Virus record (IMG/VR): IMGVR_UViG_2522572023_000008
DNA length: 46,931 bases
Direction: 5' to 3' (one strand)
Source of the DNA: a virus
Lineage: Duplodnaviria > Heunggongvirae > Uroviricota > Caudoviricetes
Numbering within the stretch: the stretch's first letter is position 1; each line of letters begins with the position of its first letter. Positions 42,001 to 45,000 of the stretch are shown in pieces. Made by a program: the position numbers.

Positions 42001-45000
42001 CGGCTGGATAACCCTCCAGCCATATTAACACCATACCAACGGATTAAAAATGCCAGCAATGGCAGGGATTTGTTCACCCTTAAATCTGTAATGAGGTTTA
42101 TCAATGAGCACTGATAAAGAAGAATTTGCGCTATATTGCGAAGCAAAAAATGACAAAGTCAGAAAACGTCTGGGAATTAAAGGTGGTTTTTACTGGACTA
42201 CAGCAAAAAAATTATCTGTTGCCATCTCCCGCTGCATTACCGCAATGGATGACAACGATTATGATGAAGACGACTTTAAAAAACCCGTTCGCGTCCATTT
42301 ACCCGTTGTGAATGACCTTCCACCTGAAGGCGTGTTTGATACCGAATTCTGCAACCGATACGAAAAAGGCGGGGAAGATGGCATTACAATGGTATTTATC
42401 GCGCCCTCTCCCTCCGTGCAGGAGAAACCAGCCAGTACTGACAATACCAACGTCAACGGCGAAGACATGACGGAGATTGAGGAGAATATGCTCCTGCCGG
42501 TTTCTGGTCAGGAGCTGCCCATTCGCTGGCTTGCGCAACACGGCAGCGAAAAACCAGTAACGCACGTTGCACGGGAAGAACTTCAGGCATTACATATAGC
42601 ACGGGCGGAAGAACTGCCGGCTGTTACTGCCCTGGCCATTTCCCACAACACAAAGCTGCTCGACCCGCTGGAGATTCGCGACCTTCATAAACTGGCACGC
42701 GACACTGACAAAGTTTTCCCTAATCCCGGTAATTCAGACCTGGGACTGATAACTGCTTTTTTCGAGGCATACCTGGACGCTGACTACACTGATCGGGGTC
42801 TGCTGACAAAAGAGTGGATGAAAGGAAATCGTGTTTCGCGTATCACCCGTACGGCTTCCGGTGCAAATGCCGGTGGCGGGAACAAAACCGATCGCAATCC
42901 GAATTTAGTACACACCTTCGATACGCTGGATGTGGAGATTGCAGCAGCCACACTTCCGATGGATTTTAATATTTATGAAATTCCGGGCAGCGTTTATCGT
43001 CGCGCAAAAGAAATCGTCCTGAAAAGAGAAAGTCCGTTCAAAGAATGGTCCGCAGCACTTCGCGCAACCCCGGGTATTCTGGACTATTCCCGCGCCGCTA
43101 TTTTTGCACTTATCCGGAGCGCTCACCCTGAGTTTTATCACTACCCGGGACGCCTTCAGGGGTATATCAACGCCTACTTAACGGAGACTGATCACGAGAA
43201 CCCCAGCAAGGAAACTCTCACTGCTGCACGACATACACCGGAAAAAGATATCCCAAAAAATGAAACCGCGCCGGAAGCTGAACCATCTGTAGAGCGTGAG
43301 GGGCCGTTCTACTTCCTCTTCACCGACAAGGATGGCGAAAAATACGGTCGCGCAAACAAACTTTCTGGTCTGGATAAGGCGCTGTCTGCTGGGGCTACTG
43401 AAATCACGAAAGAAGAATATTTCGCCCGCAAAAACGGTACATACTCAGGTTCACAACAAAATACTGGTGCATCTGACACGACCGCACAACCAGGGTCAGT
43501 AAAAGTTACCGCTGACGAAGTAAACAAAATTATGCAGGCAGCCAATATCAGCCAGCCTGACGCCGATGAACTGCTTGCAGTATCACGTGGTGAATTTGTT
43601 GAAGGGATTAGCGACCCGAATGATCCGAAATGGGTTAAGGGGATCCAGACCCGCGATTCTGTGAACCAGAACCAGCAAGAAACGGAACAGAACGACCAGA
43701 AAGCGGAACAAAACAGCCCAAATACGCAACAAAACGAGCCAGAAACGAAACAACCTGAACCAGTAGTGCAACAGGAACCGGAAAAGATCTGCACCGCCTG
43801 CGGTCAGAGCGGTGGCGGCAACTGCCCTGATTGTGGTGCGGTGATGGGTGACGCAACATACCAGGAAATATTCGATGGAGAGAATCAGCCTGAAGTTCAG
43901 GAAAATGATCCGGAGGAAATGGAAGGCACTGCGCATCAGCACAAGGAGAACACTGGCGGCAATCAGCATCATGCCAGCGATAGTGAAACTGGCGAGGCGT
44001 CAGATCCCTTAATTAAGGCGAACGGTCATCATAATCTCACATCCACCAGCAGAGCGGGGATTCATCTGATGATCGACCTTGAAACCATGGGAAAAAATCC
44101 CGATGCCCCGATTATCTCAATAGGTGCAATATTTTTCGATCCGCAAACCGGAGATATGGGACCGGAATTTAGTAAGACTATCGATCTGGAAACTGCTGGC
44201 GGAGTCATTGATCGGGACACCATTAAATGGTGGCTTAAGCAATCACGCGAAGCGCAATCTGCCATTATGACCGATGAAATCCCGTTAGATGATGCACTGT
44301 TACAATTGCGGGAATTTATCGACGAAAACTCCGGTGAATTTTTTGTTCAGGTCTGGGGAAATGGAGCCAACTTCGACAACACGATTTTGCGCCGTTCATA
44401 CGAACGGCAGGGGATCCCCTGCCCGTGGCGTTACTACAACGATCGCGATGTACGCACAATCGTTGAGCTGGGGAAAGCCATAGACTTCGATGCCAGAATG
44501 GCTATTCCATTCGAAGGTGAGCGCCATAATGCACTTGATGACGCCCGTTACCAGGCAAAATACGTTTCAGTTATCTGGCAAAAACTGATCCCGAGTCAGG
44601 CTGATTTTTAATGTTCAACCCTAATTGCCGCTAACCGTATATAGTTAGCGGCGGTTATGAGATATAGCTATGAGTAGCTTATTTTTAACCGAAGATGAAT
44701 TGCTAATATTAACGGGCTGCAAATATGCAAGCCACCAGCGAAAATGGTTAACGGAAAACGGGCTTCCGTTCTATACCAATCGTAGTGGCAAACCGATTGT
44801 CAGCCGGGATCTATTTACCTGCAATAAAACTTTACCACCACGCGAGGTAGAGCCGAATTTTGGTGCAATCTGATGGGAAGACGAAGGAAAAATCCTGAAC
44901 ACGAAAAACTACCTCCAAATGTATACCCAAATAAATATAGTTATGTATGGAAACCAACATCCAGAGAATCTGTCACACTAACCGCCATCAAGGATGGTTT

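Follow-up and report, generated by a model that had tools for sequence, protein, structure and literature searches.

A RecE-family gene with a DEDDh exonuclease domain and no annealase partner in a lambdoid prophage of Escherichia coli

What does an exonuclease do in the recombination slot of a lambdoid prophage when no strand-annealing protein accompanies it? The question is raised by an 835-residue protein encoded in the IMG/VR virus record IMGVR_UViG_2522572023_000008, a 46,931-nucleotide stretch of DNA (the window), the whole of which corresponds to positions 2420021-2466951 of the E. coli O145:H28 RM12761 chromosome (NZ_CP007133.1). The gene (2,508 bp, ATG start; Table 1) specifies RefSeq WP_025380445.1, annotated as 'exonuclease', and its reading frame is 100% identical to coding sequences in O145:H28 strains RM12761 and RM13516. 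A first-pass annotation of this DNA had placed the gene between dicB/ydfD and xis-int, had assigned a DnaQ-like nuclease to its C-terminus, and had set it apart from the classical RecE/RecT pair of the Rac prophage. We found the protein to be a mosaic within the RecE family, its PD-(D/E)XK 5'-3' nuclease having been swapped for a DEDDh domain of the DexA/Rv2179c type, and its gene to be the sole recombination-type gene of the leftward early operon.

A RecE-type N-terminal region joined to a DEDDh exonuclease domain

The assignment of a DEDDh domain to the C-terminus held on all counts. Pfam family PF16473 (Rv2179c-like 3'-5' exoribonuclease) matched residues 654-825 along the full length of its profile (E 5.6e-67; 225.3 bits against a cut-off of 27), and the Exo I/II/III residues were intact, D658, E660, D758, H808 and D813 aligning with D7, E9, D119, H186 and D191 of T4 DexA. 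The DexA structures 8kel and 8ken were the sole solved relatives by sequence (phmmer E 1.8e-6 to 8kel). In an AlphaFold model built with an 86-sequence alignment, the DEDDh part adopted a DnaQ-type RNase H-like fold with a predicted local distance difference test score (pLDDT) of ~85-95, and a Foldseek search of the PDB with the full model returned DEDDh enzymes only, namely DexA (8kel), RNase T and oligoribonuclease (Orn), at a probability of 1.00. The domain is under purifying selection, with a ratio of nonsynonymous to synonymous polymorphism (pN/pS) of 0.13 and no stop codons among 30 alleles. The C-terminal domain is predicted to have 3'-5' exonuclease activity.

The remainder of the protein belongs with RecE, and here the earlier contrast with that enzyme was only half right: the nuclease is indeed not of the PD-(D/E)XK kind and has no RecT at its side, but the first ~640 residues are the RecE N-terminal region. 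In a BLASTP comparison with K-12 RecE, residues 58-637 paired with RecE residues 50-591 at 52% identity, and neither BLASTP nor tblastn found similarity to K-12 RecE past its residue 591. Consistently, residues 1-638 covered positions 1-603 of the 877 in the NCBIfam RecE model NF007259, and the score (826 bits) fell under the cut-off of 1269 because the C-terminal third of RecE is missing. The Pfam scan placed PF06630 (Exonuc_VIII) at residues 57-189 (E 8e-34) and gave no match of the 835-residue protein to the PD-(D/E)XK nuclease family PF12684. Identity to K-12 RecE varied by block, from ~90% over residues 121-270 to ~30% over residues 271-390 and 60-75% over residues 481-630.

Three parts could be distinguished in the AlphaFold model: a folded region (residues 1-385), a disordered stretch (residues 386-650) holding a zinc knuckle at moderate confidence, and the confidently modelled DEDDh domain. 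For the folded region, no convincing structural relative was found in the PDB or in BFVD, a database of predicted viral protein structures. The disordered linker is acidic and Q-rich, and its Q/E/N-rich character, pointed out at first pass, was borne out, the Q+E+N content peaking at 44% over residues 501-550. The zinc motif, described earlier as CxxC-x-CxxC, does have its four cysteines, with a spacer of seven residues and not one; it recurs in K-12 RecE, yet only ~8 of 86 family representatives have it. Moreover, the aligned region of K-12 RecE includes its own CNAC-x7-CPDC motif and a Q/E-rich linker. The motif and the linker, once taken as distinctive of this protein, thus belong to RecE as well, which leaves the nuclease as the only difference.

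Annealase genes, Chi sites and spread of the cassette

The gene order at the slot (DicF small RNA, dicB, a ydfD-like DUF1482 gene, the 835-residue gene, xis, int and tRNA-Ser) agreed with the position first assigned to the gene. Only 58 bp separate its stop codon from xis, and xis and int follow directly, with no space left for a recT. The RefSeq annotation of the whole window contained no annealase. PHROG and Pfam scans of ~20 early-region proteins, all hypotheticals included, found no member of the RecT, Bet, Erf, Rad52 or Sak families, the proteins falling into replication, regulatory, Q-like, HNH and unknown families. A six-frame tblastn of the window with K-12 RecT and the lambda proteins Bet, Exo and Gam returned only noise (RecT, Bet and Exo with E values of at least 2.9; best Gam match E=0.003 over 37 residues). 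The reported lack of an annealase was thus upheld. Both a RecBCD inhibitor and a strand-annealing protein are absent from the prophage, and with a DEDDh nuclease and no annealase the locus is therefore not a classical exonuclease-plus-annealase pair.

This absence was not peculiar to the window. A recT gene lay directly 3' of the nuclease gene in K-12 Rac, in all three divergent PD-(D/E)XK-type loci and in 80/80 RecE-type loci from IMG/VR. In contrast, tblastn detected no RecT, Bet, Exo or Gam within 7 kb in any of 80 IMG/VR DEDDh-type loci, Pfam detected no RecT or other annealase in four divergent DEDDh-type loci (58-74% identity to the 835-residue protein in the DEDDh domain), and the record annotations of phages mEp460, vB_EcoS-640R1 and Tritos listed none, giving 87 DEDDh-type loci in total without annealase. 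In these loci xis and int directly follow the gene, and dicB and ydfD usually precede it (71-72 of 80). RecT presence tracked the nuclease type in every locus examined, being found with the RecE type and not with the DEDDh type; the missing annealase is the rule for the DEDDh cassette rather than an oddity of one locus.

The distribution of Chi sites followed the same division. The window held 13 sites against 1.95 expected, a number that none of 100 shuffles reached, and the minus-strand sites are oriented as RecBCD encounters them when it enters at the cos end adjoining the lysis genes. Across 78 unique DEDDh-type loci we counted 214 active-orientation sites against 7 of the opposite orientation (0.30 active sites per kb), while 80 RecE/RecT loci had 27 and 2, respectively (0.033 active sites per kb), a descriptive contrast between two sets of closely related prophages that is uncorrected for shared ancestry. 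Zheng et al. 2025 (PMC12315714) described lambdoid phages that lack both a strand-annealing protein and a RecBCD inhibitor and carry many active-orientation Chi sites toward the right end, and proposed that such Chi-rich phages without a recombination system of their own depend on host RecBCD. Their classes A and B comprise phages with at least 8 active and at most 6 other sites toward the right (lysis-gene) end; the window has 11 active and 2 inactive sites, all at 24.4-44.7 kb, and falls within these bounds. The same study reports that DnaQ-like 3'-5' nucleases occur in lambdoid Rec modules, and its Table 1 defines a 'Tritos' type with a nuclease, with 7-21 top-strand Chi sites, and without strand-annealing protein, SSB or anti-RecBCD function. 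The prophage fits this nuclease-only type, and RecBCD-aided growth is predicted for it.

One Chi octamer, GCTGGTGG, falls within the gene itself, in the 16-codon junction that connects the RecE-like part with the DEDDh domain. In the window as at loci L005, L006, L089, L093 and L094, the reading frame runs through it as xCC-ACC-AGC (Thr-Ser), and it was kept in place in relatives whose DEDDh domains are only 69-74% identical (proteins P0134 and P0217). Such conservation points to selection for the octamer as DNA at the boundary of the cassette. The junction site might also be part of the reason that the DEDDh domain keeps an identity of 95-99% over ~4,000 genomes despite a mosaic N-terminus.

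The cassette is very common in lambdoid prophages and already catalogued, being annotated in RefSeq and found in some three quarters of the complete E. coli genomes: the DEDDh segment (at least 80% coverage) was found in 4,046 of 5,426, in up to seven places per genome and mostly at 95-99% identity. The segment holding a K-12-type RecE nuclease and recT was found in 1,728 of the 5,426, so that classical RecE/RecT is the minority form in E. coli and the DEDDh form without annealase is about twice as common. More than 8,000 protein clusters at 90% identity matched the 835-residue query, and both PF06630 and PF16473 were present in 120 of 120 clusters among the matches listed. The RecE N-terminal family is narrow: 1.84 billion proteins yielded 284 clusters of it at 50% identity. 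Its 77 representatives of at least 450 residues comprised 20 with a RecE nuclease end, 14 with a DEDDh end and a remainder without a recognised C-terminal domain. Thirty-four representatives of this last kind gave only PF06630 in a Pfam scan, apart from one weak PF12684 match and one RecT fusion, and many of them are probably fragments. The gene family also occurs in viable phages (mEp460, Tritos, HannyBb, PhiR42_1 and Stx2a phages). In the RM12761 chromosome five places matched the gene; several co-resident lambdoid prophages of this strain therefore carry alleles of the cassette.

Proposed role and competing explanations

We consider it probable that the gene constitutes a nuclease-only Rec module, in which a RecE-family mosaic protein acts as a 3'-end exonuclease, its N-terminal region provides targeting, and the host contributes strand exchange through RecBCD, Chi and RecA. 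Judging from the position of the gene, the protein would be made upon derepression of the leftward early operon. Its DEDDh domain would then shorten nucleic acid (DNA, most likely) from free 3' ends, at sites chosen by the N-terminal region to which it would be tethered by the long linker, and strand exchange would come from host RecBCD, Chi and RecA instead of a phage annealase. Speculatively, trimming of 3' tails could make ends usable by RecBCD.

Several points weigh against this reading. PF16473 is named after an exoribonuclease, and a DNA substrate is a prediction. The timing of expression rests on gene position, the promoter scan having been uninformative. The Chi contrast, as said above, is descriptive. 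According to PMC12315714, the usual effect of DnaQ-type 3'-5' exonucleases on recombination is inhibition, and among phages lacking a Rec module no gene of unknown function is shared by all. Finally, a RecBCD-dependent lifestyle does not require a DEDDh nuclease.

A broader form of the proposal can be put forward only tentatively, and we think it rather unlikely. It takes the RecE N-terminal region as a nuclease-independent targeting module. By exchanging the C-terminal cassette (PD-(D/E)XK nuclease plus recT, or DEDDh domain alone), a lambdoid phage would pass, in either direction, from annealing recombination of its own to reliance on RecBCD of the host together with Chi. In the RecBCD-reliant state, DNA ends would be actively readied for RecBCD by the DEDDh enzyme, for example through trimming of 3' tails, and the junction Chi would take part in the spread and uniformity of the cassette among co-resident prophages.

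The kinship with DexA brings in a defence function, namely that of an HREX-type prophage nuclease like EcD that degrades incoming DNA with modified cytosine (T-even phages) and spares that of the host. DexA is the only solved relative by sequence. Kang et al. 2025 (PMC12153337) showed for its E. coli homologue EcD both cleavage of T4 DNA and protection of cells against T4, and WP_025380445.1 itself appears in Table S3 of that paper among bacterial DexA homologues; in addition, PMC6832061 reports that dicB, the neighbouring gene, protects against some phages. The residues that Kang et al. tie to recognition of 5-hydroxymethylcytosine are, however, not kept: in a single pairwise alignment at 33% identity, which supports the residue calls with moderate confidence, DexA W152 aligned with Tyr778 and the D169 loop fell in a gap. 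In the same alignment the tetramer residue D90, absent in EcD (A78), aligned with D730, a call that a shift by one column would change since A731 adjoins it. The published EcD reverse primer matched none of the viral or genome contigs searched. EcD is moreover a short, stand-alone protein (starting MIDTET) and not an 835-residue fusion. The gene also lies deep in a repressed early operon beside xis and int, and a promoter of its own was not evident in the scan. PADLOC matched it only with a generic Cas-associated DEDDh model (E 1e-5), which we did not accept as a sign of defence. On balance we judge such a defence role improbable. In another alternative the substrate would be RNA, with the protein acting as a 3'-5' exoribonuclease on phage or host transcripts or on RNA phage genomes and leaving DNA untouched. 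The best-matching Pfam family takes its name from the Mycobacterium tuberculosis exoribonuclease Rv2179c, RNase T and oligoribonuclease are the closest folds after DexA, and a 2026 preprint describes bacterial DEDDh enzymes with auxiliary domains, some of them prophage-borne, that block RNA phages (PMC13344964). Yet DexA, which among characterised proteins is the closest by sequence, acts as an exonuclease on DNA, the N-terminal region is elsewhere coupled to a double-stranded DNA exonuclease (RecE), and the preprint calls its own genes clearly distinct in sequence from other phage-defence DEDDh domains, all of which leaves an RNA-directed role with a very small share of our confidence.

Recombination could also proceed with an annealase supplied in trans, such as the RecT of another prophage, or by annealase-independent end joining through 5' overhangs. 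The Rec-module position and the retained RecE N-terminal region would suit such a scheme, as would the report that this region boosts linear-linear recombination in full-length RecE (PMC11611040), and enterohaemorrhagic E. coli genomes are rich in lambdoid prophages, with the five copies of the gene family in RM12761 as an instance. We nonetheless think it a poor candidate, somewhat poorer than defence but better than an RNA substrate: phage annealases load on the 3' tails that 5'-3' exonucleases leave and that a 3'-5' enzyme destroys, RecT was absent from 80/80 close and 4/4 divergent DEDDh loci and always accompanied the PD-(D/E)XK form, and the inhibitory effect of DnaQ-type exonucleases on recombination, already cited, counts here too. 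Least probable of all, and close to dismissible in our estimate, is that the gene serves as an anti-restriction or anti-defence factor or is a decaying, functionless remnant. Countering host defences is a frequent task of early-operon genes in temperate phages, and the anti-restriction role floated at first pass was of this kind, but nothing supports it: no similarity to a known anti-restriction protein emerged in the Pfam, PHROG or PADLOC scans. Decay is hinted at by the frameshifted integrase next door, which indicates that the prophage may be defective; the open reading frame is nevertheless intact, its DEDDh domain is under purifying selection, and the gene is carried by viable phages. We retain the nuclease-only Rec module as the preferred reading.

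Two 2025 papers cover the gene in general terms (PMC12315714 and PMC12153337), and current understanding is unchanged by our analysis. The function of the RecE N-terminal region was described as unknown in a 2023 review. This region is found with either of two nucleases that are unrelated and opposite in polarity, whether or not an annealase is present, and its role is therefore not specific to RecT or to 5'-3' resection.

Alleles, neighbouring genes and known systems

The 835-residue allele looks like a rare recombinant. Its cluster at 90% identity comprises two contigs, in agreement with the two genomes that matched it at 100%. It is nearly identical to the common 813-residue allele except at residues 391-450, while against the 823-residue allele residues 1-270 show no similarity and identity rises to 90-100% from residue 391 onward. 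This comparison bears on K-12 ydfE, which the first-pass annotation had suggested might correspond to the N-terminal part of the protein. K-12 YdfE has no similarity to the 835-residue protein; its first 256 residues are, though, 98.8% identical to residues 1-256 of the commoner 823-residue DEDDh allele (P0125), after which IS2 interrupts. As judged by sequence, K-12 ydfE is the IS2-truncated start of this sister allele with its different N-terminal module, and can be re-read as the stump of a DEDDh-type gene. In the literature we found nothing tying Rv2179c to prophages or ydfE to an exonuclease. Some divergent relatives, P0134 (L089 387-3092) and P0131 (L090 and L091, 6001-8547), combine within a single protein a PF06630 segment of the RecE type with a YdfE_C segment, the latter being PF27432 in precomputed matches and faint in P0131; the two types of N-terminal module are therefore not strictly exclusive.

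Table 1. Features of the 835-residue gene and its surroundings, in window coordinates.
Feature	Position	Strand	Source
Whole gene, RecE N-terminal region fused to DEDDh exonuclease (WP_025380445.1)	42104-44611	+	
Folded N-terminal region, residues 1-385, pLDDT mostly >90	42104-43258	+	AlphaFold
PF06630 match (residues 57-189), inside RecE-type N-terminal module (residues 1 to ~265)	42272-42670	+	Pfam
Similarity to K-12 RecE (RecE residues 50-591); RecE homology ends here	42275-44014	+	BLASTP/tblastn
Core segment, residues ~270-390, consensus including ...PGILDYSRA...; common to RecE-, YdfE-, PD-(D/E)XK- and DEDDh-type relatives	42911-43273	+	
Linker, residues 386-650 (265 residues), predicted disordered; Q/E/N-rich stretch at ~43634-43783	43259-44053	+	AlphaFold
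Zinc-knuckle motif C563-x2-C566-x7-C574-x2-C577	43790-43834	+	Sequence; pLDDT ~67
Chi octamer GCTGGTGG in 16-codon junction from RecE-like part to DEDDh domain	44043-44050	-	
Predicted DEDDh 3'-5' exonuclease domain, residues 654-825, D658/E660/D758/H808/D813	44063-44578	+	PF16473
Span of all 13 Chi sites, lysis genes to int (11 on minus strand, 2 on the other)	24424-44739	-	
DicF small RNA, upstream in the same leftward early (dicBF-type) operon	41412-41463	+	Rfam RF00039, 76.7 bits
dicB and DUF1482 (ydfD-like) gene, directly upstream of the 835-residue gene	41638-42011	+	
Excisionase (DUF4224) and tyrosine integrase (RefSeq: frameshifted), directly downstream	44670-45923	+	

The prophage is lambdoid and is inserted at a tRNA-Ser gene beside mtfA, with nleB2 at its opposite end. 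Its early left operon is of the dicBF type, the DicF-dicB stretch being 93% identical to that of K-12 Qin. The integrase gene (44873-45923, +) is frameshifted according to RefSeq, and the listing of open reading frames shows one of 341 residues ending at 45898; a prophage with such an integrase may be incapable of excision, or defective. For the repressor gene (39130-39768, +), RefSeq gives only a 112-residue 'LexA family protein' (39430-39768), whereas the reading frame from 39130 encodes a 212-residue CI-like repressor with helix-turn-helix and S24 peptidase domains (PHROG 4 over residues 2-211), and RefSeq probably sets the start too far downstream. Two genes lie in the interval from the repressor to DicF: one for a 216-residue protein (40213-40863, +; PHROG 2151, without a Pfam family), occupying the place of K-12 ydfB/ydfC, and a convergent one for a 73-residue protein (40864-41085, -; PHROG 4274). 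The former was considered as a hidden annealase and rejected, PHROG 2151 being of unknown function and a Pfam match lacking. Antisense reading frames within the 835-residue gene (e.g. 43309-43794) were taken as by-products of low-complexity coding sequence.

Further from the gene, the small RNA families AgvB (28102-28163, +) and STnc100 (28164-28354, -) abut on opposite strands without overlap, flanked by a SASA-family esterase gene and a DUF3927 gene. Genes for tRNA-Arg and tRNA-Ile (29127-29379, -) lie upstream of the lysis region, and a hok/sok toxin-antitoxin pair (33525-33849, -; a Hok/Gef coding sequence and Rfam sok at 113.5 bits) lies in the nin-like region. At the tail-fibre end, the type III effector gene nleB2 (1-981, -) is carried as cargo, as are the two tRNA genes.

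Compared with known systems, the gene shares its slot in the lambdoid early operon with lambda Exo/Bet and other two-component exonuclease-annealase systems, from which it differs in its single component, in its opposite predicted polarity and in the lack of Exo, Bet and Gam homology in the window. With T4 DexA and EcD it has in common the DEDDh subfamily, ~33% identity over the domain and the five catalytic residues (PMC12153337), but those enzymes are short and stand-alone, and the positions of DexA W152 and D169 are not conserved here. K-12 YdfE (Qin pseudogene b1577) occupies the same slot after dicB and ydfD and is the IS2-truncated remnant of the same gene, although the first ~265 residues of the 835-residue allele, being a RecE-type module, have no detectable similarity to it. 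RecE of Rac is homologous over its N-terminal ~590 residues, the CxxC-x7-CxxC motif and Q/E-rich linker included, at 52% identity overall and ~90% in residues 121-270, and it too sits in a leftward early operon near xis and int. The 835-residue protein fails the NCBIfam RecE equivalog cut-off (826 against 1269 bits). At its C-terminus RecE has a PD-(D/E)XK 5'-3' double-stranded DNA exonuclease, with recT as the next gene, where here there is a DEDDh domain and no recT. As to phage Tritos, whose protein is not characterised in PMC12315714, the window departs from it in carrying the rarer 835-residue recombinant allele, with a RecE-type instead of a YdfE-type N-terminal module, and in a prophage that may be defective owing to its frameshifted int. 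The 823-residue allele of Tritos nevertheless stands in the same DicF-dicB-ydfD-exo-xis-int order, and the window shares with the Tritos type its many active-orientation Chi sites in a prophage devoid of strand-annealing protein, SSB and RecBCD inhibitor.

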